A stretch of DNA of 63,912 bases, the filler included, from Folioceros fuciformis (lineage: Eukaryota), in NCBI GenBank assembly GCA_049999805.1. It is 5 parts of 5 records of this genome, joined end to end, with 100 filler letters (N's around TTAATTAATTAA, not from the genome) between each part and the next. Parts side by side here need not be neighbours in the genome. Positions count along the whole stretch, not along the records: positions 37,990 to 60,201 come from JBNGIO010006396.1; 4 more parts are not named here. One strand, given 5' to 3'. Shown in pieces: positions 37,890 through 63,912 of this stretch. A program made the translations under genes and the position numbers. Under the pieces are notes generated by a model that did no database searches, was not told where the DNA came from, and worked only from the letters and a program-made list of their open reading frames with translations. Positions within the stretch are counted from its first letter, which is position 1; the number at the start of each line of letters is the position of its first letter.

Positions 37890-38350
37890 NNNNNNNNNNN
37901 NNNNNNNNNNNNNNNNNNNNNNNNNNNNNNNNNTTAATTAATTAANNNNNNNNNNNNNNNNNNNNNNNNNNNNNNNNNNNNNNNNNNNNGTTTTCTACAT
38001 TTCTATATGCTATTACAAGCATAACTAATTTGTTCATAGGGCATATGAAGATTTTTTTATTCAATCTAGTGATTATACTTATCCAAATACTTTAGGGGCT
38101 AACCTAAAACTAAATATGTATAATTTATTTGAATATTAAATAATATCTCTATTTATCAAATCATACGGTTACTTTACACATCTAAGAAGCCATTAAGTCG
38201 AGAGTATATAGCTTTAACTAAAATTAATTTAAATTACGACCCTAGATCATATTTGTAGCTAAAGAAATTGCAAGAAAACCTTCTGTAACATTATAAGCTT
38301 TTTGTTCACATAATAAAAGGGTCAAGAATAACATGCACTACAATACATAA

Positions 38351-38842
38351 CTATGGGAATAGAATGCTTTGTTCGAAAGGTGGTTCAGGTATGTATGGAC
38401 AACTATTAAACATGGATTTTGTTGAGTATCGAATAAAACAATCGAAAACAAGATTTACACCAACACTCGGAATCCCCATACAGAGTTCAATCAAAATGAT
38501 TTTAATAGAACGAAGACATGACAAACATTCCATTGCTGAGGTCATTGTTTCATTGTTCTTATAACATGTCACTACTCCCCACAAATAAGGGCCATACACC
38601 ATGACAGTTCTGTAGGAAGCATAGTGAGGCAACCCATGTTCAACGTCAAATTTCCTCGCTCCATTGACGATTAAATCGTCTAAAGCTTGAGTTACGAATT
38701 GTCCTATTTGCACCGAATGAATTAGTGGTACACCGCAGTAATGATAAACCGGATGCAAATTTGGCATAGCATGCACTACCCAAAATCGTAGGAAGATAAC
38801 TAACACGACTTCAGGACGTAAAACAAATTTAAGGTGACTCAT
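38351..38842 (-). CDS. Small secreted Gnk2/DUF26-like cysteine-rich protein (163 aa)
   Basis: ATG at 38842, hydrophobic leader, YHYCG, LWGVVTC-X12-CLSC-LR, LC and DCFIRY. Confidence 0.75.
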   Translation of the reverse strand: MSHLKFVLRPEVVLVIFLRFWVVHAMPNLHPVYHYCGVPLIHSVQIGQFVTQALDDLIVNGARKFDVEHGLPHYASYRTVMVYGPYLWGVVTCYKNNETMTSAMECLSCLRSIKIILIELCMGIPSVGVNLVFDCFIRYSTKSMFNSCPYIPEPPFEQSILFP

Positions 38843-39439
38843 TGCCACTTTACCAAGTTCATATGGAGATGATTTGTAGAGGAAAAAATAATAGGAATGA
38901 TATATACATATATATTTATAAATATATATATTCATATATGAATATATATATATGTATAGAGAGAGGTTACTTAGACTTGAAAAAAATTAGGACATTTTTT
39001 TATAATAAAAAAATATTGAATTTGATTTAGTGCATATTATATTATTTAAGACAAAGAGNNNNNNNNNNNNNNNNNNNNNNNNNNNNNNNNNNNNNNNNNN
39101 NNNNNNNNNNNNNNNNNNNNNNNNNNNNNNNNNNNNNNNNNNNNNNNNNNNNNNNNNNTGGTGGTTTATAAAAATGATAATTATTTAGGTAAAAAATTTT
39201 ATTAATAAGATTAAGAATATCAACTTTTTAAAGGCCTTCGGAAGAGGTAGTTATCCTATTTATATAGGCAGTGTCTGTTGCTGAGAATCTTTAGGCACCT
39301 TCACCTTTTCTTTGCTTTTGTTACCTTTTTCTAAGATTATTTAGCTTTGTGTAAAAAATAAAAGGAATATCTTACTTATTGAGAGGATTAAATGATAATC
39401 TTGTATGACATCACTATAGATAGCACATCTAATTTGCAA

Positions 39440-40380: not shown

Positions 40381-40935
40381 TGTCTCACTCTTACCTTATA
40401 TCTTCTAGTTGAATGCAACCTTGAGGGTATTTCAACATTTTCGTAGGTGGGGTACCAGTGCAAGGCTCAAAAACAAGGGTGATTGTGACCCCTGAAACTG
40501 CATGGGATATGCAAGAAGCCTTTTAATTTGTGATCCTTTCAAGACTATATACATACTAGGAAGGAGAAGAGAAGTAGAGTAAAGACTTCAATTGAGTTAT
40601 GCTCTTTGTTCTTAATCTCTACTGGCCATAGCTTTAGCTTGAAGCTTGATGTTTGTATGAACAAAATTTGGTTCAAAGTAATTAGTCTCTGAACTCCTAG
40701 TAATTAGGATCTTCTAGCTAGAAACACACATATGGTTTGCAAAGCAAGCCATAATTTTCCTTACAAAACCCTTGCATGAAGTTACATATCTAAGAAACAA
40801 TTAAGTAGAGTAGAGATAATTTTTTCTACAATTAATTTAAATTACTACTCCATATGAATGTAAGAGGGCATTATAAGCTTTCAGAAGTTCACATAACAAA
40901 AGGGTCAAACATAACTTACAATACACTAGACATAA

Positions 40936-41430
40936 CTATGGTATGAAAATGCTTGTTTGTTCAAAAGGAGGCTCAGGTACATATGGACAACTATCTAACA
41001 TGGATTTTGTTGAGTATCGAAGATAACAATCAAGGACAAGATTTCTAGCATCACTTGGAATACCTTTACAGAGTTTAATCAAATTAATTTTAATAGAACG
41101 AAGACAGGACAAACATTCTATTGGTGAGGTCATTGTTTCATTGTTCTTATAACATGTCACTACTCCCCACAAAGTAGGGCCATATGCCATTGCGGTTTTG
41201 TAGGAAGCATAGTGAGGCAACCCATGTTCTGTATCGAACCTTCTCCATCCATCAATGATTAGCTCGTCCAAAGCTTGAGATATGAATTCTCCTATTTGCA
41301 CTGACTTAATCAACGGTACACCGCAGTAATGATAAACAGGTTGCAAATTCGGTGAAGCGTGCACTACCCAAAATCGCAAGACGATAACTAATACAACTTC
41401 CGAAAGTAAAACAAACTTGATTTGACTCAT
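40936..41430 (-). CDS. Small secreted Gnk2/DUF26-like cysteine-rich protein (164 aa), tandem paralogue
   Basis: ATG at 41430, same Cys pattern (TCYKNNETMTSPIECLSCL, DCYLRY). 5' and 3' flanks homologous to the first copy. Confidence 0.75.
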   Translation of the reverse strand: MSQIKFVLLSEVVLVIVLRFWVVHASPNLQPVYHYCGVPLIKSVQIGEFISQALDELIIDGWRRFDTEHGLPHYASYKTAMAYGPTLWGVVTCYKNNETMTSPIECLSCLRSIKINLIKLCKGIPSDARNLVLDCYLRYSTKSMLDSCPYVPEPPFEQTSIFIP

Positions 41431-42107
41431 GGCCACTTTACCAAGTTCATATGGAGATGATTTGTAGAGAAAAAAATAATAGGAATGAAAAATATCCTCT
41501 CTAAGATCGCATATATGTCGCAAAAGGAACTATCATTTGAACCTTAAAAACTGGATTGCAAAATGTCGTTTTGGATCAACAACCTTTATAGTTTTTGATC
41601 TATGGAGGTTATTAAATTTTATATTTTGGATAACAATCCGTCATTATAGATCAACAACATTGGTAAATCTTAGCTTCATGAATATAAATACAAGTTGGTA
41701 CAAAAAATTATTTATAATATATAAAAAAATAGAAAAAAAAATTGATTCAGCACACATCATATTATCTAAGACAAATAGGAATCCTTATGTGATTCTATGC
41801 AGAGAATAACAGAGAATGCAGAGAATTAAAATAATAAATATTTAGACAAAAAATAACTCTTTATAAGATTAGGGTTATTAACTTATCCGAGGAAGATGTA
41901 GTTATCCTCGTTATGTAGGCATAGTGTGAATAGAATATGTGTGTTCATATTAAACTAGTGCTAAGAATCTTTGGAAATAGAATATGTATGTTCATTTTAA
42001 ACTACTGTTAAGAGTCTTTTAGCACCTTCATCTTAAACAAACGTGTATGACATCATGATATATAGCAAATCTGATTTATACCCTACATGCCCTTTAGGGC
42101 TTTGTTA

Positions 42108-43915: not shown

Positions 43916-44529
43916 GGTTGGCCTAACATCTAGACGTCCCCATTTTTCCCAAGGACCGACGGCTCCAAAAAGGCCCAGTCCTCATCTTAAATGGAATGAT
44001 ATTGTTAGATCTGGGAAGAGCACCCTCCACACCAGAATATACCAGACATAAGAATACAGAGTCCACAAAGTTCGGTCCGGGACCGAGAGTAGCAACGCTG
44101 GGCGGTCCCGAGGACCGAGACAATACTCGGTCAAAATGACAGCCTTGGGCCGCCGCCTGAGGCTGAGGCTGACTCAGGGCTGAGGCTACCTTCCATGTGA
44201 AGAAAGGCATCTTTCGCGCAAGTAGCAAGAGTCACGTCGTGTTGTGACAAGTAGGGCGGAAGGAGGGTTGGAAGCAGCAGTTCACAAAACTTTAGCCTTT
44301 CCTGTCCGCGATGCTGGCCCACTCAATCCACAACACCAAGTCATGGTTTGATAAAATGTGCAAGTATGGAGCACGACTATCCACTCGTTGCAGACAAGAG
44401 AGAGCGTGGGGAGTATGTAGAAAAGCCAAGCACGCTCATGCCTTGATGAGTGGAGAGGAGTGAAGCCCGTCAGCTCTCGTGCTGGCTACCACTCAACCCT
44501 CTGGTCTCGCGGAGATTGAAGAGTCTTGT

Positions 44530-45090
44530 ATGGTGTACCAACTCTCCTCGACTGTGTGTGCTTTGAGGTTGACGTCCCCCCCCCTAGCCTATCCTTGTCT
44601 GGCGTCCCAATCCTCCTCGAGTTTGTGTGCCGTGAGGTTGGTGTCCGCTAGGCTGCCTATCCTTGTTTGGTATGCCAATCCTCCTCGAGTGTGTGCTTGT
44701 GAGGTTGCTGGCACGTAGCATATCATCGTCTGCTGTGGCAATCCTCGTCGACAGTGTGTGCTGTGAAGTTGACGTCCCCTAACCTATCCTTGTCTGGTGT
44801 CCCTATCCTCCTCGAGTGTGTGTGCTGAGGTTGGAGTCCCTTAGGCTGTCTGTCCTTGTTTGGTGTGCTCGAGGGTGTGCCTGTGAGGTTGCTATCCCGT
44901 AGCATATCCCTGCCTGGTGTGCCAGTCCTCCTCGAGTGTGTGTGCTGTGAGGTTGATGTCCCCTAGCCTATCCTTGTTTGGTCTGCCTATCCTCCTCGAG
45001 TGTGTGCTTGTGAGATTGCTGTCCCGTCCGGTAGCCTGCCCGAGTCTGGTCTCCCAATCCTTGAGTGTGTGATGTGAGCTTGCTGACCCT
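44530..45090 (+). repeat. ~62-66-bp minisatellite directly upstream of the LRR gene
   Basis: About 9 copies of ATCCTTGT..GG....CC.ATCCTCCTCGAGTGTGTG..GTGAGGTTG. Confidence 0.85.
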
Positions 45091-45162
45091 GCTACAAAAC
45101 GGATTATACATACAATCCATTCATCATACTTGCTAGAATTGGGAAGCGCAGCTTCGCACAGC

Positions 45163-47808
45163 ATGGCAGCGGAGTCGGACTATGACTGGCATGAGTTGCC
45201 GGAGAAGCTGCAACAGCTGCTGGTAGATCTGGAAGACAATGCCTTGTCCGAACTCCCGGACTTGGACGGAGAGGAGTACGGCAATTTCTTCGTATATGGA
45301 GCTTCGAACAGCAGCGATGGCAGGCACGGGCGAGTGCGGAATCGGGTATTGACAGCAATTGGCCAGTGCCGCAGTCTCCGAAGCCCGAAGATTATTGAGG
45401 AGTGGGAAATCGGCATTGATCGGGAGGATGAATGCGTGGTTCTGCTGGGTGCCCTGGCATCCAACCCTTCCCTGGAATCGCTTGATCTGAGTTGGTGCAA
45501 AGGTTTTGCTACGCTGGCGGGTTGCAAGGCCCTGGGCCAGCTTATTGCTTCCAGTCGCAGCTTGCGACGGCTGGAGGCACGCGGGATCGGGGTTGATGCC
45601 ACGGGACTTGGTGCTCTGGTCGAAGGCTTCTTCAACAAGGATTGTGTCCTAGAGTATTTGAACCTCAGCCGCAACAGCGTGGGAGATGCTGAAGGGGCAC
45701 AGCACCTGGCTCGCATGCTGGCCACCGCTCCCCGTCTCAAAACCCTGGATTTGCGTCGGATCGGCATGGATGAGGCGGGAGCCCAGTTTATTGCGAACGC
45801 TCTTCCACTCTGTGCCACGCTCCGGAAGCTTTATTTGGATGCTCTAGATCCAACTGACCAGGATACAGTCTGGGGTCTCGTGCAGGGTAGCCTGGGGCCC
45901 GTCAGCAGTGTGTTGAAACTTGCTTTCACACGTGCCGGTGCTGATGCTGCCATATCTGGGGTCACCAAGCTGATATTGGATATCAGCGACAGCGAGAAGC
46001 CAGGCCTGGCCGACGCGCTGTCCGGAATGTTGCGCACCAACGATCGTATCACGAAGCTTGAGATCAACCTTTCTGCCGTTGAGTGCGGTCTGGGCGCCTG
46101 GCGCCACAACTCCACCCTCTCTAAACTAAACTTGGTTGAGTTTCGCGACGGTGACAAATCTTTGAGTGAATTTTCGATGTCGTTTCTGGACTGCAAATCA
46201 TTACGTGTCCTGACTTTGCGTAGGATTTTTTGGCCCACTTTCATGAAAGCATTGATGCAGTCTTTGGAGAAAAGAACATCTTTGAATGAACTCAACATTG
46301 TGTCATGTGATGACCTCGATGATGAGCTCTCCAGAGAGTTGATGCAGTTCGTCCGAGCCAGCACCACTTTACGGAAGCTGAACATGGAGGGCACAGAGTG
46401 CGATTGGGAAGAGAATGCGGCCATCATCCGCGCAACGTTGGCACGAAATGCTACTCAAAGCGACCGCTGGGGGAGGATTGCGGAGGAGGAGAAGGAGGAG
46501 GATGACTGGAGCGCGATGCCGGCTGAGCTGCAACAGCTGGTGGAACATCTGGAAGGGAATGCCTTGTCCGAACTCCCCTACTGGGAGGATGAGTGTTACC
46601 GTGATTACTTCCCAGAGCCACATCCTTGGTGTATTATGGATGGCCACTACTTCGGAGAGCTTGGTCGTCGTAGGAGGCACTGGCGAGTGCGCAAGCGGGT
46701 ATTGACAGCTATTGGCCACTGTCGCAGTCTCGGCGACGACCTGACTTTCTTCGCGGAGTGGGAAATCGGCATCGTTCAGGAGGATGAATGCGCGGTTCTG
46801 TTGGGGGCCTTGGCATCTAACCCTTGCTTGGAAACTCTTTGTCTGGATGAGAGCCAAGGCTTTGGAACGCTGGCGGGTTGCAAGGCCTTGGGCCAGCTTA
46901 TTGCTTCCAGTCGCAGCTTGCGACGGCTGGAGGTAAGCTGTATAGGGCTTGATGCCACGGGACTTGGTGCTCTGGTTGACGGGTTCTTCAACAAGGATTG
47001 TGTTCTGGAGTATTTGAACCTAGGACACAACAGAGTGGGAAATGCTGAAGGGGCACAGCACCTGGCTCGCATGATGGCCACCGCTCCCCGTCTCAATACC
47101 CTGGATTTGTGTGGGATCGGCATGGATGAGGCGGGAGCCCAGTGTATTGCGAACGCTCTTCCGCTCTGTGCCACGCTCCGGGAACTTTATTTGGATGATA
47201 TATATTCGTGTGCCGGGTATTCCAGTTCGCGTGTCCTACAGGGCAGTCTGGGGTCCATTAGCACTGTGTTGAAACTTGCTTTCACCCGTGCTGATGCTGA
47301 TGCCGCCATATCTGGGGTCACCAAGCTGTCATTGTATATCCCGGACAAGGGGGAGCCAGGCCTGGCTGACGCGCTGGAGGGAATGTTGCGCACCAACGAT
47401 CGTATCACGGAGCTTAGTATCCAAGGTTTTTCGAGTGGGATGGACGGTATTTCGTATGGGATGGACGGTTCTTCGAGTGGGATCGAATACCGCCTGGACG
47501 TTGATGATGAATTTCCGATGTTTTCTCTGGAATGCAAATCATTACGTATCCTCACTTTGATGGGTATTTGTTGGCCCTCTTTCATGAAAGCGTTGTTGCA
47601 GTCTTTGGAGAAAAATACATCTTTGAAGGAGCTCAGGATTATGAGGTGTTATCCTCTCGACGATTACCTCTTCAGAGAGTTGATGCAGTCCCTCCAAGTG
47701 AACACCACTTTACAGAAGATGGACATAGTGTCCACAGACTGGGGTGTTGAGGGAAAGCAGGCAATCATCGACGCGACATTGGAACGCAATGCTACTCACA
47801 AGGCCTAG
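45163..47808 (+). CDS. RNI-like LRR ORF of two tandem ~440-aa modules; N-terminal part of a Roco gene truncated by TAG
   Basis: ATG at 45163. Modules start DWHELPEKLQQLL and DWSAMPAELQQLV, and both end ATLxRNAT. Roc motifs follow the stop. Confidence 0.8.
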   Translation: MAAESDYDWHELPEKLQQLLVDLEDNALSELPDLDGEEYGNFFVYGASNSSDGRHGRVRNRVLTAIGQCRSLRSPKIIEEWEIGIDREDECVVLLGALASNPSLESLDLSWCKGFATLAGCKALGQLIASSRSLRRLEARGIGVDATGLGALVEGFFNKDCVLEYLNLSRNSVGDAEGAQHLARMLATAPRLKTLDLRRIGMDEAGAQFIANALPLCATLRKLYLDALDPTDQDTVWGLVQGSLGPVSSVLKLAFTRAGADAAISGVTKLILDISDSEKPGLADALSGMLRTNDRITKLEINLSAVECGLGAWRHNSTLSKLNLVEFRDGDKSLSEFSMSFLDCKSLRVLTLRRIFWPTFMKALMQSLEKRTSLNELNIVSCDDLDDELSRELMQFVRASTTLRKLNMEGTECDWEENAAIIRATLARNATQSDRWGRIAEEEKEEDDWSAMPAELQQLVEHLEGNALSELPYWEDECYRDYFPEPHPWCIMDGHYFGELGRRRRHWRVRKRVLTAIGHCRSLGDDLTFFAEWEIGIVQEDECAVLLGALASNPCLETLCLDESQGFGTLAGCKALGQLIASSRSLRRLEVSCIGLDATGLGALVDGFFNKDCVLEYLNLGHNRVGNAEGAQHLARMMATAPRLNTLDLCGIGMDEAGAQCIANALPLCATLRELYLDDIYSCAGYSSSRVLQGSLGSISTVLKLAFTRADADAAISGVTKLSLYIPDKGEPGLADALEGMLRTNDRITELSIQGFSSGMDGISYGMDGSSSGIEYRLDVDDEFPMFSLECKSLRILTLMGICWPSFMKALLQSLEKNTSLKELRIMRCYPLDDYLFRELMQSLQVNTTLQKMDIVSTDWGVEGKQAIIDATLERNATHKA

Positions 47809-48400
47809 TGGCCTTTGCTTTCGGAGGGGCACGAGGCTGTGAAGCCCAGGGTCGGGTCTTTTCCTGTGCGGTGCACCTTACGCACGGAAGACCACTCTCC
47901 GCACCACATGATTACCGCATGGCACGCATCACAAACACACACAAGTACAGCAGCCGCATCACCCAACCACAACGGTACTGTCACCAGAACAGAAGGAAAG
48001 GAAATCGAGGTGCTGCGCAACGACGATGAGATGGAAGACTACTTGTTCCCGAGCTTCAATCAGACGTGTTTTCCTGTTCACCTTCAACCCACTTGATGCC
48101 GACAAGCCTGGCGAACCCCCTTCCGTCCCATGAAACGCTGCTGGACAAGTTCAGAAACGGCTTTAAGTTTTGGCTTAGATTCATCCACTCTAATTCTCGC
48201 AACGTGGGTTCCTGTTTGCCTCGGGTATTTGTGGTTATCACTCATAAGGATGAGATGGAGGATGGGGACGCTGAATTACTAGTAGATGTGCTGCAACCAG
48301 TCATGACACAGTTGGCCAAGGATTTTGAGGAGGCACTCCTTATCACGACAACGCCTCTATTCTTCATGGATGGTCGATGCGAAGAGACTGTGCAGCCCGA
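47809..48400 (+). pseudogene. Degenerate Roc GTPase domain continuing the LRR ORF
   Basis: Across frames: LFLCGAPYARKTT (Walker A G to R), RTEGKEIEVL, DYLFPSFNQ, FLFTFNP, FWLRFIHSNS and PRVFVVITHKD. The WDLAGQ segment is deleted. Collinear with 25200-25770. Confidence 0.85.
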
Positions 48401-48409
48401 AGAGGGTCC

Positions 48410-48990
48410 ACACGGAACAGGGTACGTTCTCTCAAGGTAGAGAAGACAAGGCAGAGAAGCTTTACGTTGAAGATGATATTTTGGAGCCCATCGCTGAATG
48501 CAAGCTTTTGGCAAACAACCCTAAGACCTTTCTCATAAATGCTTGTCGAGGCACTGGCAATCTCGTCAGAAGCATGAAAGCGCAGGAGTCAAGCACCACC
48601 AACCCTGCAACCAGCAGCAAAGCCAACGTGTCAGACGTTGAGGGAAGCCAAGTTGTGAGCAAGAGAGTTCGACCATTGTCCTCTGTGAAAGACCTCCTAA
48701 CCGATTTCTCCACCAGTCCTGGAGATGAATCTTTGAGAGATGTGGAGGTAGGCACAAACTTCATCATAGCTTTGATGGAAGCCATCGTGGAGGGCTCTGG
48801 AACAGAAGGTGTCGTGAGCATTCTGACAAGCGTGATTGGCAAGGTCACGGGCAAGGAGGTCCAACACAGAACCAAAGACGGGACTGTGAGAAGAAATATC
48901 AGTGTCCTGAGTTGCGCATGCGCAGTACACGTACCAGAAAGCTGTACTGGTCTCGACCACCCCAGACTCCTGTCATGCCTGGCTTGAGTC
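48410..48990 (+). pseudogene. Caspase-like domain copy 1 (C-terminal p20, linker, p10) abutting the Roc domain
   Basis: CKLLANNPKTFLINACRG (Cys codon 48544-48546), DLLTDFSTSPGDESLRDVEVGTNFIIAL and SILT..IGKV. The His region is deleted and there is a frameshift near 48882. Confidence 0.88.
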
Positions 48991-49915
48991 AGTAGCATGT
49001 TGCCAGGGCCTGTGAGGCCTTCAATCAAGTGTCAGGTATGCTCTTCAGCTACCATACTGTTGGTGTATCAAATACTGCTTCTGATAGACCTTGTCGCTTC
49101 TCCCTTGCCCGGAATTCTTTCCTGTTGGGCAAGAGAGACCTCTCACAGCGTCGTGATGGGGATGAACAAATGATGCCCCATGGAGGCTATGCGTAGGGAG
49201 GGAAGGACGTTCGCGCTTGTACACACACACTTGCGGCTCTTGGTTTTCAGAGGCAAGTGAGTGATTAAGATTTGCGGCCTTGTGGCTTTCACAATACTTG
49301 CACAATGTCAGAATGTATCTTTCATCTTCCCGACCAGCCGTAGCTTGGTCCCTCAGTGAAATCGCGTGTGCACCTTCTGCCTTCAAGTCACAGTGACACC
49401 AGGGAAGAACGAGGGGTAGCTCACTACTTGTGTTAACTGGATTCCCTTTTCTAGCGCGTCACCTGTAGCACATGCACAGGTATAGCTTTTAGTCATCCAA
49501 TCGAGGAGCAGACGTGCGCCATGGGTGCCTCCCTTCCTGTGGCAGGCCATAAGAACCGGATCACGGAGATGAGAAACCATTAGCCCCTTCAGGAGCATGG
49601 CAGCAGGACATGCCGAAGGTCCGCCCTTCATCACCATCTGTCCCCTGCTCGGTTTGCCAAATCGGTCTTCGGATGATGGTTAATCGTCTGACAATCCAGT
49701 TTCTACAGCGTTACGATGACAAGCACAGCCTGAGCACACTTGCCTGGTCACTGCCTTTTCAATCTAACTTGCATCTTGCATCTCTGTACTTCCCAGTCCC
49801 AACTACCAGGCAAGAAAAGCTTCCAGCCATCGCTCGCCGGCATGTAGCGGGGCCCTGGGCCTGCCTGTTGCATCCTGCCGCACCTCACGGAGGCTTCAAG
49901 TACAGTATTTGCAAT

Positions 49916-50250
49916 TGAGGGTTGGTACCGTGGGAGCGAATGCCCTCGCCAAAGGCTTTTGTGGCGGGGAACTTGGACTTGCGGACGAACCAGGTGGGAG
50001 GTGCTTCGGCACCTGACCCGCATTCTGGCGTCTGCTCCCGAACTCAAGAATTTGCCACAGCATGACACCGGCATGGATGTGGATTGGGATGCTCTTCCCC
50101 TCTGTAGCACGCTCCACAAGTTTGGAACACGGCGTTGCATTCTCGGGTCGCAACCCCAGCATTCTCCGCAGGAGCGATGCGGTCAGATTCGCTCTCACCC
50201 GCACTGATGGGAACGCCTCCGCGTCTGGAATCACAGAGCTTCCTTGGGCT
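49916..50250 (+). pseudogene. LRR-Roco family remnant
   Basis: RHLTRILASAPELKNL..GMD..ALPLCSTLHK matches QHLARMLATAPRLKTL..GMD..ALPLCATLRK of the 45163 ORF. Confidence 0.75.
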
Positions 50251-51209
50251 GGATGTCGGGGAGGAGAAAGCGTAGGTCGGACTTGTCGAAGGGAGGAGGG
50301 CATACTTGTACATACTTTACATAATAATGCACACATGTCGACGGCAGAATGGTTGATGTCTCCCGACACCCAAACTCATCCTCTAGGCTTTTACATCTTT
50401 CATGCTTTGTATTAAAAACTTAAGAATGTTAATACGCTTCGTAGATCAAATCACTTAAGCTTGTATTTCTAAGTAATAGGGGACAACTTTCAATGAGATT
50501 CTAAGTATATACTCATACATAAAAGCTTCTCTAAACCTAAACCTTGAACAACCTTTGGATATGAAAAAATATAACCTAGACTCATAACTATACTCCATGG
50601 CTTAGGAGGACAAAGGTTATAAGCTTGCAAGCTATTTTCATGTTCCACTTACTTAAAGTATTCCATGCTCATATCTTAGGAGTAATTAGTTTTTATAAAT
50701 TATTTTTGGTTTTTTTGAAGAAATTATTTTCCTTATATTTTAAGATAAAATGACTTTAAGCTTCCCTCTTTAAAAGTCATCTCTTTAAAAGTCATTAAAA
50801 TCATTTTAAAAGTTAATGACTTTAAGCATCTCTTTTTATTAAAATGTATGATAATAATCATTCAAGACCTATACGCATAGATCAGTGTACAGCGTAGTTT
50901 GTGGTTACCCAAGGCAATCAGTGCATGTACTGGTGAAGCCATCTCAGGCATGACCCTAAGATTAATGGCCCTGTCTAGACCTGTTGCAAAGAGAAGGAGA
51001 GAAGAATCGTGAAGGGCGTGCAGTGACAAGCTTGCAGCCATTACCATCTATGATGATGAAGGTTTATCTTGTACTGTGAAGAAGGGACCGGGCTGTTACA
51101 AATCCAAGCTAACCGAGTAGGAGGCAGGATTTTCACATACATGTGCTTGCACGTGGAGCATTCCTTGCTCGCAATTGCAACTGAAGCATCCTTTGGTCAG
51201 GACCTGGAG

Positions 51210-52728
51210 ATGGAGCTGCAGGCAAGCGCGCTGTGGATGCCAGTGCTGCTTGCAGCTTTGGGACTGGTTGTAGCCGTGGCAGCTGCCCCGTTACAGGCTG
51301 ATTTCTGGAACTGCAATCCCAGGCCGGTGTGGGGTAATCCCCTGAACGGCATTCTCATTCCCAACTGCTGCACGCTGGAGGCGCTGATGCGCAAGCCCCA
51401 GCCGCTGTACAAGACATGGCAGCAGTACTTGGAACAGAGCGGTCTTCGGGATGGGCCGATGCGAGTGCGTCCAGCTGCGCATCTCATCGCAGACAACGAA
51501 ACCTACCTGCAGCAGCTAGATCTGGCGTTCAGGCTGCACAAGGCGCTTCCAGACGCCGATCCGAGGTCCCAGATTTCGCAAATGAACCTCCACTGCGTTT
51601 ATGGCTCTCCTAACGTGTCGCGCCAGGCTGGGTACGAGCACTTGAGCTACGTCACGCACGTCAATTGGTACTTCTTCCCCTTCCACCGCTGGTAAGCTCT
51701 CATGGAGCAGGAACTGCTGTGCATGTCTAGTTCAAGTGATGGCATCGCTGTTGCTGTTGCTGTTGCTATTGAATCCGGTGATGCGCGTTCCATTTCACCC
51801 TGGCACTTTGGCCTCGGCTGAAAAATAGGTTCACCTTCTTCTTCGAGAGGATACTGGCCAAGTTGGTCGGCGACGAATCCTTTGTTCTGCCTTTCTGGAA
51901 CTGGGACAATCAGGGCGCCGACTCCAAGCACCTTCCCAACACTGTTCCCCACTACTACCGCAATCCTGACAAGTACCCCGGCCTGTATCACAAGTATCGC
52001 GATCCTCGTCACCGACCTGAAGCAGAGCCTGCCGTCATCAACCTCCTTCGCAACTCTGTCGAATCAGGCTTTTCTCCCACGACACCGCAGGAAGTGGCGC
52101 GGGCTCGTGCACTGAACAAGGCGCACCTGCGAAGCTTGATCGTGGACGCCACCGCCGACGGTAGCAGACCCGGAGTCTTCCTCGGCGAGCCGATGCGACT
52201 GGGAAACACCTATCCCGACCATGAGATCTGGAGATCGAAATTCGAAGCGGAAGCGCACATGGCTGTGCATTTCTGGATGGGAGACCCTGCTTATGGGTTT
52301 GCGGACATGGGGCTGGTGTATCACGCCGTTCGCGACCCGATTTTCTTTGCCCACCATGCCAATGTTGACAGGATCTGGAACGTTTGGATGGTAGGTTAAT
52401 GTTGCACGGAGTGGAAGCATGGATGGACCACAGATTATGAATCAAATTTGGACCCTCCCATATGAGACAGACTGACTGACTGGTGTTGTTCGTTGTTCAG
52501 GGACTCGAGGGCAGGCGCAACTATGATGAACCCGACTTCCTGGACGCTGCCTTCTACTTCTACGACGAGAATGCGGAGATTGTGAGGGTCACTGTTGCCG
52601 AGTGTCTCAGTTCTGACCTCCTGAGATACACCTTCCAAGACGTGGAGAACGAGTGGGTGACCTACGACGCATCAGACTATTCAGTCCTTTTCGTTGACGA
52701 CCCATCTTCAGCACGTTCCCAAGCATGA
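51210..52728 (+). CDS. PPO: Polyphenol oxidase (type-3 copper) with signal peptide, 3 exons (51210-51691, 51829-52390, 52501-52728; 423 aa)
   Basis: CuA: HCVYG...HVNWYFFPFHRW. Also LPFWNWD. CuB: HMAVHFW...DPIFFAHHANVDRIW. DWL-region FYFYDENAEIVRV. GT-AG introns restore one open frame. Confidence 0.92.
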
Positions 52729-54113
52729 TGACTGGGTCACCATGCTTGAATGGATGGATTCGAATCCTTTACGTTTAACAGCCCATGCACACAACGTTCC
52801 CGACCGCATGAAGGAGTAGCCTACAGACACACGAAGACACTTTGAACTTGTATTCCTAATGTCCCGTAGTTGCTTAACCTGAGTCACCTGAGTGTCATAG
52901 AGGTCGGGGGCTTTCAGCAGCTTGCTATATCCAGGTCCATCAGGTCGAACTTTTCAAGATCCTCCTCCAAAACGTTGAGAATCAAGACTCAACAGAATTG
53001 TCAGATGCCTACCGCAAGGTCCTTCCAGCCATGGCTGATGGAAAATTTCAAACTTATGAAGCGTAAGATGACATGACATTAGACAGACAACGTAATCTCT
53101 CCCACAATACCACACAACTACTGTGGTTGGTTGTCAACTTCATAGCAGCACTTCAGCTGCAGGTCTTGTGGAAGCACTGTAGATCCCAACTTGGGCTGCC
53201 TGTAAGCGACAGACACGCCCAACCGAAGCCATCTGAAGCAAGAAGGCAGCGGAAAGCGGCAGCTGTGAAGCGGGAAAGGAGGAGCGAGGCAGTAGAGGGT
53301 TTGGGTATTGTGCGAGCATGCCACAAGAACCTTCCGCTTTTGAGCTTGGGCTACAACAGCGAGTTAAAGCAGCCATCGGAGGTGAAGGCCAAGCGTTCCT
53401 TGGCCTTCGGCGGGGGAGGCTGCTAATGTGATCCGTGTAGCTGGGGTTTCGCGGACCCCCGCGTTTTCTTTGGGCCTCGGCTCTGTTCCCGGAACAGCTT
53501 CCTTGGCCTTTGGAGGCGGAAGAAGCTATGTAGGAAGGGTAGCCCCTCTGAAGGGAGTATGAGTGCACAGGAGCGGACAGATTGTGACTGTCAGGAGCCG
53601 AAACAGGCAGCAAACCGAGGCGTCGTCAAGGGATGAGGACCAGGGCAAGTCCATTGGGCTCCAAAGGCGCTGGTGGGAAGATCCGGAAGAACCTGCTCGA
53701 GTTCGCGTGTTTTGCAGGACATCTGGTATCCGGAGACCTCCGGTACTCCCCCGTTGTGCTGCGGAGCCTAACTTTGAGCTGTAGGGATTAATTACCTTGT
53801 CTGGACCTGATCCAAAGGCAAGGAGAGGACAGGCGTCAAGGGCGTGAACTGACAATCTTGCAGCCGTTACCAGGCAAGGAGAGGACAGACATGAAGGGCG
53901 TGGAATGACAAGCTTGCAGCCATTCCCGTCCATGATAATGACAGTTCATCTGGTATGTACTACGAAGAAGGGACCTGTCTGTAACAAAACCAAGTTAACC
54001 GGTCCCGACGAGAGGATCCTTCAAGTAGGAGGCTCGATTTTCACATACATTTGCACTTGGAGCATCCCGTGCTCACAATCGAACTTCAAGCATCCTTTAG
54101 TCGGGATCTGAGG

Positions 54114-54719
54114 ATGGAGATGCTGCCGAGCGCGCTGTGGATACCAGTTCTGTTCGCAGCTTTGGGACTCCTTGTAACCGTGGCAGCTGCCCCGCTACAG
54201 GCTGATTTCTGGAACTGCAATCCCAGGCCGGTGTGGGGTAATCCCCTGAACGGCATTCTCCAGCCCAACTGCTGCACGCTGGAGGCGCTGATGCGCAAGC
54301 CCGAGCCGCTGTATAAGACATGGCAGCAGTACTTGGAACAAAGCGGTCTACAAGGCGACCCGATGCCCATCATCCCAATGTTGACAGGATCTGGAACGTT
54401 TGGATGGTAGGAATGTTAACGTTGCAAGGAGTGGAAGCATGGACCCTCCCATATGAAACAGTCTGACTGACTGGTGTTGTGCATTTTTCAGGGACTCGAG
54501 GGCAGGCGCAACTATGATGACCCCGACTTCCTGGACGCTGCCTTCTACTTCTACGACGAGAATGCGGAGGTTGTGAGGGTCACTGTTGCCGAGTGTCTCA
54601 GTTCTGACCTCCTGAGATACACCTTCCAAGACGTGGAGAACGAGTGGGTGACCTACGACGCATCAGACTATTCAGTCCTTTTCGTTGACGACCCATCTCC
54701 AGCACGTTCCCAAGCATGA
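54114..54719 (+). pseudogene. PPO: PPO duplicate with both copper sites deleted
   Basis: 5' part matches 51210-51460, then jumps at ~54368 to the NVDRIW segment. The last exon and 3' flank (to ~55220) match 52501-53235. Confidence 0.9.
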
Positions 54720-55785
54720 TGACTGGGTCACCATGCTTGAATGGATGGATTCGAATCCTTTACGTTTAACAGCCCATGCACACAACGTTCCCGACCGCAT
54801 GAAGGAGTAGCCTACAGACACACTACGACACTTTGAACTTGTATTCCTAATATCCCGTAGTTACTTAACCTGAGTCACCTGAGTGTCATAGAGGTCGGGG
54901 GCTTTCAGCCGCTTGCTATATCCAGGTCCATCAGGTTGAACTTTTCAAGAGCCTCCTCCAAAACGTTGAGAATCAAGACTCAACAGAATTGTCAGATGCC
55001 TACCACAAGGTCCTTCCAGCCATGGCTGATGGAAAATTTCAACCTTATGAAGCGTAAGATGACATTAGACAGACAACGCAATCTCTCCCACAATACCACA
55101 CAACTACTGTGGTTGGTTGTCAACTTCATAGCAGCACTTCAGCTGCAGGTCTTGTGGAAGCACTGTAGATCCCAACTTGGGCTGCCTGTAAGCGACAGAC
55201 ACGCCCAACCGAAGCCATCTGAGCCCAGTCCGGGCCGTCCCTCTCTGGTTTTCCTGATTCTCATAGCGCATAAGCTGCACACGTCTGACCAGGTCTTTAA
55301 TCTCCTTGTTGTCCTTATCGCCTGGTCCGAGTTCGTCAGGAGTGTCTTCAGCTCTTCGTCCTCCACACTGGGCTCCCGGCCTACTGTCAGGTGCTTTCAT
55401 ACTGCTGTTCGGCCCCCCCGAAGTGTCACGAGCTGAATGCCTTCTGCAGAGCCCGCTGGTTTGGGAGACGTCGGAGGTGGTGGGGACTGATGAGCGCCTG
55501 GGGGTGCTGACTGCTCCAGGGCTTGAAGCACACTCCCCAGCTGCCTCCCCCGGAGGGTCGGACCTAGCCCTCTCCCAACTGGGTGTCGTCGATGAGCGTG
55601 GACGCTTGGATCATCAATCCAGTCTCAAACATTTGCATGCAACAGCAGCAACTTGACGACACTGCGGAATCACGGTGAGCAACGGGTTCTTACAACAAGA
55701 GGCAACAATTTTTAATGGGTCGCGAATTCGCGGACACCCCTACAGTCAGGTAACAGCTACATCGCAGATTTGCCAGCGAAACCAT

Positions 55786-55910
55786 TTGCCCCGTTACAGG
55801 CGGATTTCTGGAACTGCAATCCCAGGCCGGTGTGGGGTAATCCCCGGAACGGCATTCTCATTCCCAACTGCTGCACGCTGGAGGCGCTGATGCGCAAGCC
55901 CGAGCCGCTG
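55786..55910 (+). pseudogene. Third PPO 5' fragment
   Basis: GCCCCGTTACAGGCGGATTTCTGGAACTGCAATCCCAGG...GCAAGCCCGAGCCGCTG matches 51285-51407. Confidence 0.85.
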
Positions 55911-56104
55911 CGGAGCCTAACTTTGAGGTGTAGGGATTAATTGCCTTTTCTGGAACTGATCCAAGGGCAAGGAGAGGACAGGCGTCAAGGGCGTGGAATG
56001 ACAAGCTTGCAGCCATTACCGTTCATGATAATGACAGTTCATCTTGTAGATGAACTGCACACCGGTTGATGGACTGCTTTCTCGAAAGCCTGCAGATCTC
56101 TTAG

Positions 56105-57183
56105 ATTTCCTCCGACTCGGATCTGCCTCGTTACTTCCACGTCTGGCCAGCTGCAGGAAGGCCTGAAGCCAGTCTACGCAGTGCACAAGAGGATTCCATT
56201 AACTTCTTAAGTTGCGGTGAGGTTGAAAATGTTTTGAAGGCGTGGCGCACAAGAATGCAGTCCGATGCAAGGAGTGGCCCTTCAGCTGCGAAAAGGCACT
56301 CACAGGGAGCGACTCAAATGGATTCAATGCAGGAATCAGCATACCCCAACGAAAGGGTGAAAGCAGTTGAGCGGAGAGGTCTAGCAATGGTTATAAATAT
56401 GGAAGAAGACAGACCTAGAGGAGCGGTAGACAGAGAGCGACTTCAAGCTCTGCTCGAGACCTTGAAGTTTGATACAGACATCGTGGTGAACCATCCACCT
56501 AAGGAAGTGAAATCAAGGTTGGAAAAAATTCTCAGGGTCCAATACCTAGCAGAGGACAACTGCTTTCTGTTTTGCATCAACGCCCATGGTGGGACTGATG
56601 AAAACGGAAGGCAGTACGTTCGCTTAGGTGTAAAAGACAAGGCCGGGAAGATGTTGAAGATGATATTTTGAAGCCCATCGCTGAATGCAAGCTTTTGGCA
56701 AACAAGCCCAAAGGTTATTCTCATAAATGCTTGTCGAGGCAATGGCAATCTTGTCAGAGGCATGAAAGCGCAGGAGTCAGCACTGCCAACCCTGCCACTA
56801 CCAGCAAAGCCAAGGTGTCAGAGGTTGAGGGAAGCCAGGTTGTCGGCAAGAGACTTCGACCCCTTTATTCTGTGAAAGACTGCCTCACAGTTTTCTCCAC
56901 CAGTCCTGGAGATGAGTCTTTGAGAGATGTGGAGGAAGGCACAAACTTCATCATAGCTTTGATGGAAGCCATCGTGGAGGGCTCTGAAACAGAAGATGTC
57001 TTGAGCATTCTGACAAGACTGATTGGCAAGGTCACGGGCAAGGAGGTCCAACACAGGACCAAAGACGGGTGCTATGAGAAGAAATATCAGTGTCCTGAGT
57101 TGCGCATGCGCAGCACACTTACCAGAAAGTTATACCGGTCTCAACCACCCCAGACTCCTGTCATGCCTGGCTTGAGTGAGTAG
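56105..57183 (+). pseudogene. COR-like tail plus a complete caspase-like domain (copy 2) with three small frameshifts
   Basis: Open frame 56105-56671: RYFHVWP...FLSCGEVENVL, linker, RGLAMVIN, DRPRGAVD, CFLFCINAHG (His codon 56585-56587). Then KPK/VILINACRG (Cys codon 56732-56734), DCLTVFSTSPGDESLRD..GTNFI, EDVLSILT, QCPE..STLTRKLY. Confidence 0.9.
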
Positions 57184-58089
57184 CATGTGGCCAGGGCCTG
57201 TGATGCCTTCAATCAAGTGTCCGGTATGGTCCTCAGCTACATACTGTTGGTGTATCACATACTGCTTTTGATGGATCTTGTCGCTTCTCCCTTGCCCGGC
57301 ATTCTTTCCTGCTGGGCAAGAGAGACCTTTCACAGCGTCCTGATGGGGATTAACAGATGATGCGCCATGGACCCTATGAATAGGGAAGAACGTGCGCGCT
57401 TGTACAGACACAATTGCGGCTCTTGGTTTTCACAGGCAAGTGATCCAGATTTTTGGCCTTGTGGCTTTCACATCACTTGCACACTGTCAGGATGTATCTT
57501 TCATCTTCCCGACCAGCCGAAGCTTGGTCTCTCAGTGAAATCGCGTGTGGAGCCTCTGCCTTCAAGTCACTGTGACACCAGCGAAGAACGAGGGGTAGCT
57601 CACTACTTAAGTTTACTGGATTACTTTTGCCAGCGTCCCTACTGCAGCACATGCACAGGCATGGCTTTGAATCATCCAATGTAGGACTACACCTGCGCCA
57701 TGTGTGCCTCCCTCCCTGTGGGCGTGAGAGAAGTATCACGCAGATGAGAAACAATGAGCGGCTACAGGAGAATGGCAGCAGGACATGCAGAAGCTTCGCC
57801 ATTCTTCACCATCTGTTCCCTGCTCGGTTTGCCAATCTTTGTTCCTATCATGGCTAGTCATCTCACAATCCAGTTTCTACAGCCTTACGATAACAAGCAC
57901 AGTCTGAGCGCACTTGCCTGGCCTTTGGCTTTCAATCTGGCTTGCATCTTGCATGTCTAAACTTCCAGTCCCAACAGCCAGGCAAGAAGAGCTTCGAGCC
58001 ATGGCTCGCCGGTAGGTTGCGGGGAACTGGGCCAGCATGCTGCATCCACCCGCACCTCACGAAAGCTTCAATTACAATATTTGCTATGG

Positions 58090-58575
58090 AGCGTGCCTGT
58101 GAGCCTTTTGAGAAATTGTTGCATGTGAGTGCTTGCTTCTTGTGCGCCTGCCTGTGAGCCTTTTGAGAAATTGTTGCATGTGAGTGCTTGCTTCTCGTGT
58201 GCCTGCCTGTGAGCTTGCCTATGAGCCTAGGGGTGAGGCTGCGAGTAAGATGGCCTTTCAGCTTGGGAGAGAGACTGCCTATGAGCCTGCGACGGAGCTT
58301 GCCTGTGAGCCTACCCGTAGCCTGTGCGTGAGCCTGCCCATGGTCTGTGAGTGAGCTTGCCTATGAGCCTGCGATGGAGCTTGCCTGTGAGNNNNNNNNN
58401 NCTGCGATGGAGCTTGCCTGTGAGCCTACCCTTGGCCTGTGAGTGAGCCGGCTTGTGGCCTGTGAGTGAGGCTGCTTGTGGCCTGTGAGTGAGGCTGCTT
58501 GTGGCCTGTGAGTGAGGCTGCTTGTGGTCTGTGAGTGAGGCTGCTTGTGGCCTGTGAGTGAGCCTGTCTATGAGC
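58090..58575 (+). repeat. GCCTGTGAG(TGA) minisatellite
   Basis: Many GCCTGTGAG units, including a 21-bp unit GGCTGCTTGTGGCCTGTGAGTGA. Confidence 0.9.
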
Positions 58576-60301: not shown

Positions 60302-62676
60302 ATGCGTAGATGGGAAACCCTGGGTTTGTTGCCGCTCCAGCGCTCAAAGGGTGTGACGTTGGGTAGCTTCTTTGTGGGAAGTCTGTTCTTGAGATAGTTG
60401 GAAGTAGATATGGCTTCGGCCTAGTAGCCTTTAGTAAGTCCAGCAAGCTTAAGCAGAGAGCGTGATATCTCTAGAAGGGAGTGATTCAAGCGCTCGGCAA
60501 AGGAGTTCTGGGCTGGAGTATAAGGTACCGTATACTGTCGTTGAATGCCCTTGGATTTGCAGAAGTCCTGGAAGGCATGACTAATGTACTCGCCTCCGTT
60601 GTCTGTGCGTAGGGTTGCCACCTGAAAACCGGTTTGGCACTCAGCAGAGAGGAGGAAGTCTTGGAAGCTGGGGAGAGCTTCGTCCTTGTGCTTGAGGAAG
60701 TAGACATGACAGTATCGGCTCCATTCGTCCAGAAAGGTAATAAAGTAGCTGTGGCCGCCGAAAGATTCAGTACTCATGGGCCCGCAGATATCCGAGTGGA
60801 CTGTCTCGAGTAAGCGTCTGGCTCGAGTAGGAGAAGGATCATTAAAAGGGAGCTGGTTCAGTTTGGTATACTGACAGACTTCGCAAAAGAAATCCTTGTG
60901 GACTTTGAGCTTAATGGGGTCCTTGTACATTGCAGGATTAGCAAGCATGTTTAGATATCTGGGGTTCATATGACCTGCTCGGCAGTGCCAGAGGAGGGAC
61001 TGATCTGGAGTAGTGGTTGAGTTACTATCGACTAGCAGTGAGGTGGACTGGATATTGAGAAGGTACTGGTCATTGAACAAAAGGCCGTGAGCAAGGGTGA
61101 CTTGATGGGGGTCCTTACTATGGTGGACGGTGCAATGATTTCCTGAAAAGGTGATGATGAGATCATGTTCTGTGGCTAACTTACGGACTGACAACAGGTT
61201 CTTGGTCATGGCGGGAACGTGGAGGACGCCATTAATTACCAAGAGTTCGCCGGTAGACAGACGGAGTTGAACCTCTCCTGAACCCTGGACGGGAAGAGAG
61301 TTGTCGTCCCCGAGGAGGACATGCTAATCTGAGAGGACTGTGTGATAAGAGGTAAACATATCTCGGCAGCTACATATGTGAGTTGTGGCTCCGGAATCTA
61401 AGAACCAGCGACTTGTATCGGTTCTGGTGAGTGTCAGACACACTGCTAGTATTGAATTTGGTGATGAAGGTTTGACTGTGGTGGTGAGGTAAGACTCATT
61501 ACGTGGTGTGTCCCTTCGAGGCTCTCTGCGAGTTTCTTGCGGCATTCATGCTCATGGTGCCCAAGAATCTTGCACCAGTTGCATGCTCCCTTACTGATGC
61601 GTCTGTCGGGTTGTTTGCTCTGCTGAAAATGCCTGTTCGAAGGAGCTGAGGAATTCATGGGAGGCTGGCCTCTTCTATTGGAGAAACCTCCTCGTCCGCC
61701 ACCGCGCCTGTTGCTTCGTCCTCAAGATACGAAGAGGGCATGGCTGATTCCAGAGTTGCTACGAGTGATGCCAACTCTGCTGGATTCTTCCTCGAGTAGT
61801 GCTGCTACTACGTCGGAGAAAGTGTAAGCTGGTGGTGCGTTCGCCCCTGCCACTTGGATGGCTTGCCTCAGTGCAGCGTTTTGTGAGCTAACGAAATTCC
61901 TGTATGATGCAGGCAGAGAGGTTAGAAGTGCAACTGCTGCCTGAAGCTCGGTGATGACGGTGCCGCTATTGGAGAGCTTCGCTCTTAGGGACCGAAAAGC
62001 GTTTACGTGTTGTTCAACGCTATCACTGTCCTTCATCTTGAGTGAGTAAAACTGTCTTGTGGCGTTGATAAGGACATCGAACTCTGTGCCCGAAACATAT
62101 CGTTGAATGCTTTCCAAACATCATGTGAGGTCGCCTGACCTTGGGTGTGTTGCAGCATTGTCTTGTCAATCGCAGATATTAGAATATTGCGGGCCCTCTT
62201 GTCTTTCTTGTCCCATGCGGCTATCTGGTCAAGGGTAGCTGGCGTGGAAGAAGTGAGGGAAGGCCGTGGCAAAGTCCCGTCTGTGACTGACATCAAATCG
62301 TGTTCCTCTAGTAGGGCAGTAATTCGAATGTGCCATATGTCGTAATCGCTTCCTGTGAAGCGATCACGGTCCCTGAATTCTACCTTGGTAGTGTTAATTA
62401 CCGTGGAGATGGGATTAGGGGCAGGATTTGCCATGGGTGCACTGACAAGTTTCTTAGGAGGGAGTTTGAAGGTGTGTGAAGAAAGTGGGTCAAATTTGGG
62501 CATAGAATGTTGAGGATCAAGAAAGGGCTTGCCTGACTCACGATTGCCTGTGGGCAGGCATGCGGCTAATCGCGATGTGTAGGGCCTCGAGCTGCGACTC
62601 GATGCAGTTCAACTGAATTCTGAGATAGTCGAGTGTAGTTGGTACCATGGCAGGAATAGGAGCAACGTACGCACAT
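60302..62676 (-). mobile_element. Ty1/copia gag-pol fragment with stops and frameshifts
   Basis: Gag (FTGSDYDIW, WDKKDKRARNILI), zinc knuckle CNWCKILGHHEHEC, protease WFLDSGATTHIC, LWHCRAGH..CEVC, integrase VHSDICGP/TDNGGEY/AERLN. Order is PR then IN. Confidence 0.95.
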
Positions 62677-62776
62677 NNNNNNNNNNNNNNNNNNNNNNNN
62701 NNNNNNNNNNNNNNNNNNNNTTAATTAATTAANNNNNNNNNNNNNNNNNNNNNNNNNNNNNNNNNNNNNNNNNNNN

Positions 62777-63912
62777 CCCATTGACACGGGTGGGTAAGAA
62801 TTCTCCATTCAGCTCCCGTAGCTGAATCGACCCGTTTTCAAAAACGTGGGTCACTTCATAGGGTCCCATCCATCGGAGTCGTAATTTCCTAGGGAAGTCA
62901 AGGTACTGGCTGTCATAGAGCAATGCTAAGTCACCCGGAACGACGCGTTCCGTCTTCCTCAGTCTCCTGTCATGATACCACTTTCGTTGTTCCTGTACTC
63001 AGTGAGTCTCTTCTAGTGCTGCGTCGCGATCTTCCTCATGCGCAATGAGCTTCTCCAGCCGAGCTTGTTGACTATCTTCGATCGGTAACCGAGTGTCCTC
63101 CAAAATCCTGTGTGTTGGTACTTCGAACTCGATGGGCATAACTGGCGACATCCCGTAGGTCAGAAAATATGGAGTGCGTTTCGTAGTTACCTTCTTTGCT
63201 GTTCGGTAAGCCCACAGAGCGGAATGTAGTTTTGTGTCCCAGTCATACATGTGGGAGACAGTCACCTTGGTGAGTATCGTCCCCAACAGCCCATTGGTTT
63301 TCTCCGTCAGCCCATTGGCCTTGGGGTTGTATGGAGTCGTCTTCCGATGTCGAATGTTGAAGTAGCGGGTGAGCGATGCTATAACCGTGTTCAGAAAATG
63401 AGTTCCGCGGTCGCTCACCAGCTCCAACGGACACCCATACCTAGTGATGATATTTTCGAACAGGAATTTGGCCACGGTTGATGCATCATCCTTGCGGGTA
63501 GCCTCTGCTTCCACCATCTTCGTGCAGTAGTCGGTGGCAACCAAGATATATTGTTTGCGTGTCCGCTGCGTTGGAGGACGGATGGGTCCGACGAAGTCTA
63601 TTCCCCATTTTTCGAAGGGTGCCAGGGGCAGAATATAGGTTAGGGGCCACTGCGTGCCTAGGGTCGGTCTCCCAACCCGCTGACAAGCGTCACAACGCTT
63701 GATGTACTCCCAGACGTCTCTATGCAGGGTCGTCCACCAAAATCCCGTATCCAAGATCTTCTTGGCAGTCACCTGGACTGAGTAGTGACCACCCGCCTCT
63801 TCAGCATGTAAGGCCTCGACTACTAACATGGCCTCCGCTGGCTCCAAACACCTGCGAATTTTTCCATCGGGGCCCATCTTGTACAATATCTCGTGCTTCA
63901 GGCAATAGGGTC
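62777..63912 (-). mobile_element. Ty3/gypsy integrase fragment
   Basis: H..GGH..CDACQR, WGIDFVGP, SDRGTHF, ANGLTEKTN, LWAYRT and the GPY/F motif WMGPYEV. Stop codon at ~62999. Confidence 0.93.

Follow-up and report, generated by a model that had tools for sequence, protein, structure and literature searches.

Remnants of a probable Roco–caspase protein family in the genome of Folioceros fuciformis

Introduction

To what kind of protein did the caspase-like coding sequences at positions 45163–57183 of a 63,912-nucleotide stretch of Folioceros fuciformis DNA (assembly GCA_049999805.1; the whole stretch is hereafter called the window) once belong? Two related gene copies lie there on the plus strand: copy 1 combines leucine-rich repeat (LRR) blocks, traces of a Roc GTPase domain and the second half of a caspase, and copy 2 holds a whole caspase domain behind a short in-frame peptide. 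A first-pass annotation regarded both as broken remains of a gene in which the LRR, Roc and COR modules of a Roco protein were fused to a caspase. Our results suggest that they are probably two rearranged remnants of a lineage-specific family in which a TORNADO1-like Roco scaffold carries a C-terminal caspase-type protease.

Where the caspase-like activities of dying plant cells come from has long been asked, and a Roco–caspase combination is unexpected in plants. No Roc-COR-caspase protein and no land-plant caspase-type domain are described in the open-access papers and bioRxiv main texts searched. Excerpts of two papers treat caspases as restricted to animals, with metacaspases alone in plants (PMC10896300, PMC5756287). 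According to excerpts of a third, Tornado1 consists of N-terminal LRRs with ROC-COR at the C-terminus, is named as the sole plant Roco and occurs in flowering plants only, and the biochemical role of TORNADO1-like proteins is poorly understood; a figure legend there shows Trichoplax ROC-COR proteins with domains that include CARD and TIR (PMC4104024).

Caspase domains behind COR-B tails in homologous proteins

The copy 2 open reading frame (ORF) has 12 matches among 1.84 billion representative proteins, none of which covers query residues 1–69; a profile search adds P0013, giving 13 homologues in all. In four of the 13 (i.e. P0001, P0002, P0005 and P0013), all taken from other data sets, one ORF encodes a COR-B tail and then the caspase. 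Their tails match the last exon of a TORNADO1-like Roco gene that lies elsewhere in the window and has no caspase (BLASTP E 2e-13, 3e-10, 1e-9 and 1e-7 across the four), and Pfam finds a full caspase domain in three of the four (E 1.1e-27, 8.3e-34 and 1.9e-31). The four proteins are mutually 30–40% identical, share the same junction layout and have no stop between the COR-B and caspase parts. Two of them are Trinity transcript isoforms and two come from short-read contigs (4.0 and 8.7 kb). At the level of predicted ORFs, COR-B–caspase fusions exist, as these four diverged sequences attest. A COR-B–caspase profile gave 279 pattern matches in metagenome contigs and 34 in prokaryote genome contigs, with none confirmed in either set.

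The window's own Roco gene serves as the comparator for these tails. Pfam identifies LRR_6 (E 1.4e-9) and COR-A (E 1.2e-15) in it, and scores its Roc domain at E 2.8e-5 (24.8 bits, under the cut-off of 27). We assign its last exon to COR-B plus a tail by position, because it follows the COR-A exon. The homology of P0005 to this gene begins at about the start of that last exon, which is consistent with ORF calls confined to a larger gene's last exon. Because copy 1 contains LRR and Roc sequence, and because we know of no COR-B apart from Roc-COR, we infer that LRR and Roc modules lie upstream of the COR-B–caspase part in intact members.

The first-pass annotation had made its proposal depend on whether the caspase homologues are all stand-alone genes and whether the copy 2 peptide lacks COR homology. 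Fusions are found, and a profile places the peptide at the COR-B end (see below). The proposal that a Roco protein once carried the caspase as its C-terminal domain is thus supported on its COR-B side, by the four ORFs and by the motif in the copy 2 peptide, and reaches the LRR and Roc modules only through the reasoning above.

Organization of the two copies

The features of both copies are collected in Table 1. In copy 1, the LRR part belongs to an ORF of 911 amino acids (45073–47808) with its first Met at 45163. It contains two ribonuclease-inhibitor-type LRR blocks (45182–46457 and 46502–47798) with a mutual DNA identity of 77%. Pfam LRR_6 matches this ORF (E 2.8e-8; 33.7 bits, cut-off 23.4) as well as the LRR part of the window's Roco, and the two are similar by BLASTP (E 1e-17).

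In the Roc remnant that follows, the P-loop position reads GGARG (47823–47837), without the Lys and Ser. Further Roc motifs, i.e. DYLFP (48037–48051), FNPLD (48083–48097) and THKD at the G4 position (48240–48251), can be aligned to the window's Roco. Recognizable Roc sequence is limited to the G4-side half (48147–48341; 38% identity over 65 amino acids to the same protein, BLASTP E 1e-12), and Pfam finds no Roc domain in 47809–48096 or 48030–48440. The order LRR–Roc–caspase on one strand, as first annotated, therefore stands for the LRR blocks (LRR_6) and the caspase (Peptidase_C14), and for Roc no further than this half. Contigs of three sequencing runs (X1, X2 and X3) are one base short of the window at 48116. 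A frame-keeping GT behind 48065 occurs only in one X3 contig, itself with further differences, and is absent from the X1 and X2 contigs.

The caspase piece of copy 1 begins ∼10 residues past the catalytic His, which is lost, and reaches the RKLYW motif at the C-terminus. It includes the Cys motif NACRG (48538–48552, within INACRG) and a frameshift near 48882. Pfam Peptidase_C14 matches 48307–48987 (E 1.4e-11, 44.9 bits) over profile positions 93–213 of 233. Copies 1 and 2 share 86% DNA identity over 1503 bp (48422–49922, corresponding to 56614–58094), and this likeness starts abruptly at 48422, ∼10 codons past the position of the catalytic His. At the matching point copy 2 codes without a break and has no intron signal, so 48422 is a rearrangement breakpoint rather than an exon border. 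The region before it, with the catalytic His, is deleted, and no COR-A or COR-B match is found between 48341 and 48422 in copy 1 or upstream of copy 2. This agrees with the earlier claim of a deletion at about 48400 that took the early p20: the breakpoint is sharp, the His is lost and no COR match is left. An X3 contig of 439 bases matches 48341–48779 exactly and spans the breakpoint; it is not evidence of transcription, and X3 is at best a presumed RNA run. Two X3 joints (48481 to 56780 and 57221 to 49170) were rejected as splicing and attributed to the mapping of paralogues or chimaeras.

Copy 1 is a pseudogene, given its stop codon, lost nucleotide-binding motifs, missing GT near 48065, deletion at 48422 and late frameshift. 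The LRR fragment 3' of its caspase is, by its homology, the leftover of another unit.

Table 1. Positions of the two copies, their flanks and the comparator gene in the window
Feature	Position	Strand	Basis or remark
TORNADO1-like Roco, without caspase	22657–27575	+	LRR twice, Roc, COR-A; last exon COR-B plus tail
Copy 1 overall	45163–48995	+	LRR blocks, decayed Roc, second caspase half
Copy 1 LRR part	45163–47808	+	Open from Met 45163 to in-frame TAG 47806–47808
Copy 1 decayed Roc GTPase remnant	47809–48421	+	Spread across three frames
Copy 1 second caspase half	48422–48995	+	Pfam Peptidase_C14; DNA homology to copy 2
3' flank of copy 1, common to copy 2	48996–49922	+	85.8% identity; end runs into LRR fragment
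Isolated LRR fragment	49852–50123	+	tblastn homology to residues 153–253 of copy 1 LRR ORF
Polyphenol oxidase (PPO) coding fragment and PPO-upstream-like sequence	55787–56050	+	In place of original 5' part of copy 2
Copy 2 overall	about 56050–57183	+	Whole caspase behind short in-frame peptide
Copy 2 putative COR-B end remnant	56054–56250	+	In-frame TAG 56102–56104; YFHVWP 56132–56149
Copy 2 linker, COR-B remnant to caspase	56251–56371	+	Candidate internal starts 56255, 56318, 56327
Copy 2 complete caspase domain	56372–57183	+	Pfam, motifs, alignment
3' flank of copy 2, common to copy 1	57184–58094	+	DNA homology

Copy 2 has the motifs of a complete caspase domain, i.e. a start at RRGLAMV (56372), DRPRG (56408–56422), the His motif NAHGG (56579–56593) and the Cys motif NACRG (56726–56740), followed on the C-terminal side by SLRD (56917–56928), RKLY (57124–57135) and a stop (57181–57183). 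Pfam Peptidase_C14 matches 56105–56671 (E 3e-5, 24.2 bits, profile positions 1–86) and 56602–57183 (E 1.7e-10, 41.4 bits, profile positions 109–233). All three ORF pieces of the window are thus above the gathering cut-off of this family (PF00656; 21.4 bits). PPO-upstream sequence recurs 5' of this copy: the likeness to the regions 5' of two PPO copies stops near 56050, and ∼320 unique bases remain before the caspase.

As the window reads, neither copy has an uninterrupted caspase frame, and in copy 2 the frame shifts three times, near 56650, 56706 (an extra G) and 56778. Contigs of X1, X2 and X3 contain CTTT (or CTAT) behind 56650 and an A behind 56778; both insertions give copy 2 the frame of copy 1 and remove two of the three frameshifts. 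They account for the full contig depth, which is not copy number: 15.1 of 15.1 at 56650 and 23.4 of 23.4 at 56778 in X1, 13 of 13 and 23.8 of 23.8 in X2, and, in X3 (a separate study), all depth for the four-base insertion and 213.6 of 213.6 for the A. Many contigs are only 90–95% alike to the window (244 of 495 in X1, 199 of 458 in X2 and 115 of 229 in X3), and diverged relatives of these segments are therefore present in the same runs. X1 and X2 may come from the sample behind the window assembly, in which case assembly errors in copy 2 would be indicated. The small indels of the short-read contigs relative to the window (48116, 56650 and 56778) suggest assembly indel errors or strain differences. 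The first-pass view that both copies are broken holds for copy 1, with its stop, frameshifts and deletion, but is doubtful for copy 2, where the contigs contradict two of three frameshifts.

Between the caspase copies, dN/dS is 0.49 (148 codons; 16 synonymous and 28 non-synonymous differences), and coding identity is 90.2% compared with 85.8% in the flank. These values suggest that the caspase copies were under some degree of constraint in the past.

The peptide in front of the copy 2 caspase

A peptide at 56129–56236 had been annotated as lying in frame upstream of the caspase and as resembling the COR end of the window's Roco. The first part is correct: RYFHVWPAAGRPE (56129–56167) shares an open frame with the caspase p20. 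As for the second, an end motif, [YF]xHxW[PD], is common to the fusion tails and the window's Roco and is located 55–82 residues before the caspase in the fusions. In copy 2, YFHVWP is located 76 residues ahead of the caspase start, and MAFFT aligns it with this motif. On a tail profile built without copy 2, the peptide scores 6.6 bits (equalled by 5 of 5000 shuffles) and, when extended back to the breakpoint, 7.1 bits (equalled by 2 of 5000); the profile consists of five sequences and the two shuffle tests are not independent, so this support is modest. Copy 2 would keep a COR-B tail of at most ∼30 residues.

Type of caspase

On sequence and predicted structure, the domain is closest to animal caspases 3/6/7/8/9 and not to metacaspases. 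P0005 has 179 PDB matches at E ≤ 0.01, and every one of the 60 listed is caspase 3, 6, 7 or 8, the best at E 1.3e-15; at the same threshold, the copy 1 caspase piece has 11 matches, again all caspases. The Foldseek matches listed for the AlphaFold2 model of P0005 are caspases 3, 6, 7 and 9 and insect caspase-1 (target TM-score 0.75–0.86). Neither the 60 PDB matches listed nor the Foldseek matches listed include a metacaspase. Metacaspases cleave after Arg or Lys and have an acidic S1 pocket. Zebrafish caspase-3 and P0005, aligned by HMMER, have the His, the Cys and two Arg (RxG..D and S-L/W-R columns) in common, and both window copies keep the same two Arg columns, which we take to line the Asp-binding pocket of caspase-3. 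The nearest ESM Atlas clusters to P0005 are animal caspases at 0.87–0.89, which is under the 0.9 mark and makes them leads only; no Roco architecture appears among them. The predicted complex of two P0005 copies (residues 172–450) scores 0.74, but one control also reached 0.62.

Alternative explanations

Several observations weigh against a Roco–caspase origin. In copy 1, a motif search finds neither an intact P-loop nor a DxxGQ switch II, and the Roc frame differs from the caspase frame. The last exon of the window's Roco has no Pfam match and retrieves no Roco chain in a PDB sequence search; its AlphaFold2 model (6 sequences) has a mean pLDDT of 45, too low for a fold search. In the AlphaFold2 model of P0005, the caspase part is confident and the COR-B part has pLDDT 30–69. 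The copy 2 ORF gives no BLASTP match to the COR end of the window's Roco (best E 4.4, in other segments), and at E 1e-3 the tblastn matches of the fusion proteins stop short of the peptide. The likeness of the peptide to that COR end, as annotated, thus fails by direct comparison and is modestly supported by the small profile. In addition, the four COR-B–caspase ORFs begin inside COR-B, and no protein or contig with LRR, Roc, COR and caspase in one piece was found in the searches made. Searches for longer proteins scored none of 1398 candidates for the copy 1 caspase piece and none of 7134 for P0005, which is weak evidence. Among the other homologues, P0004, P0009 and P0010 have short N-termini and could be free-standing caspases, and P0008 (807 amino acids) and P0011 (1113 amino acids) have the caspase at the C-terminus behind alpha/beta-hydrolase repeats; the caspase module has therefore been combined with more than one scaffold. 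P0004 and P0010 have Y-x-x-x-W just before the caspase, and P0010 also has LRELEKEK; with these COR-B-end-like stretches, they may be truncated fusion products too.

One alternative is that the modules met by chance. A free-standing caspase gene and a Roco gene would have been neighbours, the 3' half of the caspase (48422–49922) would have been duplicated into a Roco pseudogene, and the peptide of copy 2 would be a 5' leader. The differing frames in copy 1, the negative BLASTP result for the peptide and the short N-termini of P0004, P0009 and P0010 are in its favour, as is the patchwork nature of the whole stretch (i.e. PPO pieces, LRR fragment and duplications). However, four independent ORFs elsewhere join a COR-B tail to a caspase, the peptide matches the fusion end motif in frame and at the right distance, and chance would need to have put the same two families next to each other twice, with strand and order unchanged. 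We consider this explanation improbable. Even less credible, and in our view very improbable, is that the COR-B–caspase ORFs elsewhere arose by chimaeric assembly or read-through and that the fusion protein is never made. Trinity isoforms and short-read contigs can be chimaeric, but independent chimaeras would not conserve the layout that these diverged sequences share, with the same junction, a conserved end motif and no intervening stop.

A further possibility concerns copy 2 alone and is compatible with a Roco–caspase family: copy 2 might be a working, free-standing caspase gene that descends from a fusion ancestor, is driven by captured PPO-upstream sequence and owes its frameshifts to assembly errors. 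All catalytic motifs are there, in-frame Met codons occur at 56255, 56318 and 56327, and the PPO-upstream homology stops ∼200 bp before them. All covering depth of X1, X2 and X3 carries both frame-restoring insertions, the dN/dS value points the same way, and the window has other assembly defects, e.g. an exact 4399-bp duplicate between N runs. Set against this, the extra G near 56706 stands and is not among the contig differences listed, the contigs with insertions could derive from a paralogue at least 90% alike, and no run listed is on record as RNA. On balance, a working copy 2 is possible but doubtful.

Proposed origin and mechanism

Under the preferred explanation of a Roco–caspase family, the parent gene would have encoded two LRR blocks, a Roc GTPase, COR-A, COR-B and then a caspase 55–82 residues behind the COR-B end. 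Copy 1 would have kept the LRR blocks and Roc but, by illegitimate deletion or recombination at 48422, have lost COR together with the first third of the caspase and its His, and would later have gained a stop codon and frameshifts. Copy 2 would have kept the last ∼30 COR-B codons, the linker and the whole caspase, while its 5' part was swapped near 56050 for PPO-upstream sequence; it may persist as a free-standing caspase gene. In intact members, the LRRs might sense a ligand, and the Roc-COR module would alter its nucleotide-dependent dimer state through COR-B. The caspase domains on the COR-B ends would thereby be brought together and activated by proximity, like initiator caspases, and could cut after acidic residues to start a cell-death or defence response.

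We suggest only tentatively that one lineage of land plants, possibly with streptophyte relatives, has single-chain 'Roco-somes' in which a COR-B dimer interface activates a fused, Asp-specific caspase of animal type. These would parallel the apoptosome or inflammasome, with a GTPase as the switch and covalent wiring, and would contain a true plant caspase. Given the scaffolds of P0008 and P0011, early immune receptors of plants may also have used the caspase module as an interchangeable death effector.

Comparison with known systems

The resemblance to TORNADO1 lies in the LRR and Roc remnant of copy 1 and in the four fusion tails, which are homologous to the window's TORNADO1-like gene. However, TRN1 and the window's own Roco end after COR, whereas a caspase follows in the fusions. 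With animal caspases (MEROPS C14A), the domain shares the His and Cys motifs, KPK-x-x-x-x-ACRG, the two Arg and the C-terminal Q-x-P...L-x-K-x-Y/W. It differs in having Asn for the Gln of QACRG, a Roco tail instead of a CARD, a DED or a short prodomain, and a plant host. Plant metacaspases (C14B) share the Pfam family Peptidase_C14 with the window caspases but are not among the PDB and Foldseek matches listed for P0005.

The apoptosome and inflammasome (Apaf-1 or NLR with caspase-9 or -1) would be analogous in the proposed logic only, i.e. an LRR or other repeat sensor, a nucleotide switch and activation by proximity. Here, the switch would be a Roc GTPase and not a STAND ATPase, and the caspase would be covalently fused rather than recruited via death-fold domains. 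Pfam finds no NB-ARC or NACHT domain in the seven window ORFs or ten homologues scanned. DAPK1 and the CARD- and TIR-containing Roc-COR proteins of Trichoplax also join Roc-COR to cell-death modules, although theirs are adaptor or kinase domains and not a protease.

If the proposed family is real, it offers a concrete candidate for caspase-like activity in at least one plant lineage and a possible output for TORNADO1-like proteins. It would also be a natural experiment on effector activation by Roc-COR dimerization, with a bearing on LRRK2-type signalling. The two window copies would then serve chiefly as pointers to intact members elsewhere.

Genomic setting

By its genes, the window is land-plant DNA; they include the TORNADO1-like Roco gene, PPR-type ORFs, a PPO and a legume-lectin ORF. 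A 64-base tandem repeat of ∼8 copies (70% matches) occupies 44525–45089, immediately 5' of the copy 1 start codon. Between the two copies, a PPO gene (50994–53236; ATG 51210) is followed by an internally deleted PPO copy (53876–55222; ATG 54114) and a coding fragment of 124 bases (55787–55910).

The first-pass annotation had placed the caspase copies among PPO and Gnk2 defence genes. This is confirmed for the PPO neighbour (Pfam Tyrosinase, E 1.3e-22) but not for Gnk2: a duplicated ORF pair on the minus strand (38289–38900 and 40869–41529) has a weak Gnk2/Stress-antifung match (E 3.4e-4) with 21.7 bits, under the Pfam cut-off of 25.

The window contains 17 N runs. Two stretches of 4399 bases (18022–22420 and 33491–37889), each bounded by N runs, match each other at 100% identity; the probable cause is duplication during assembly or scaffolding, and not biology. 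The legume-lectin domain (E 1.1e-45) belongs to a GC-rich ORF of 1074 amino acids (12820–16041, plus strand), and long ORFs at 60424–63910 on the minus strand are, by eye, retrotransposon gag-pol-like.

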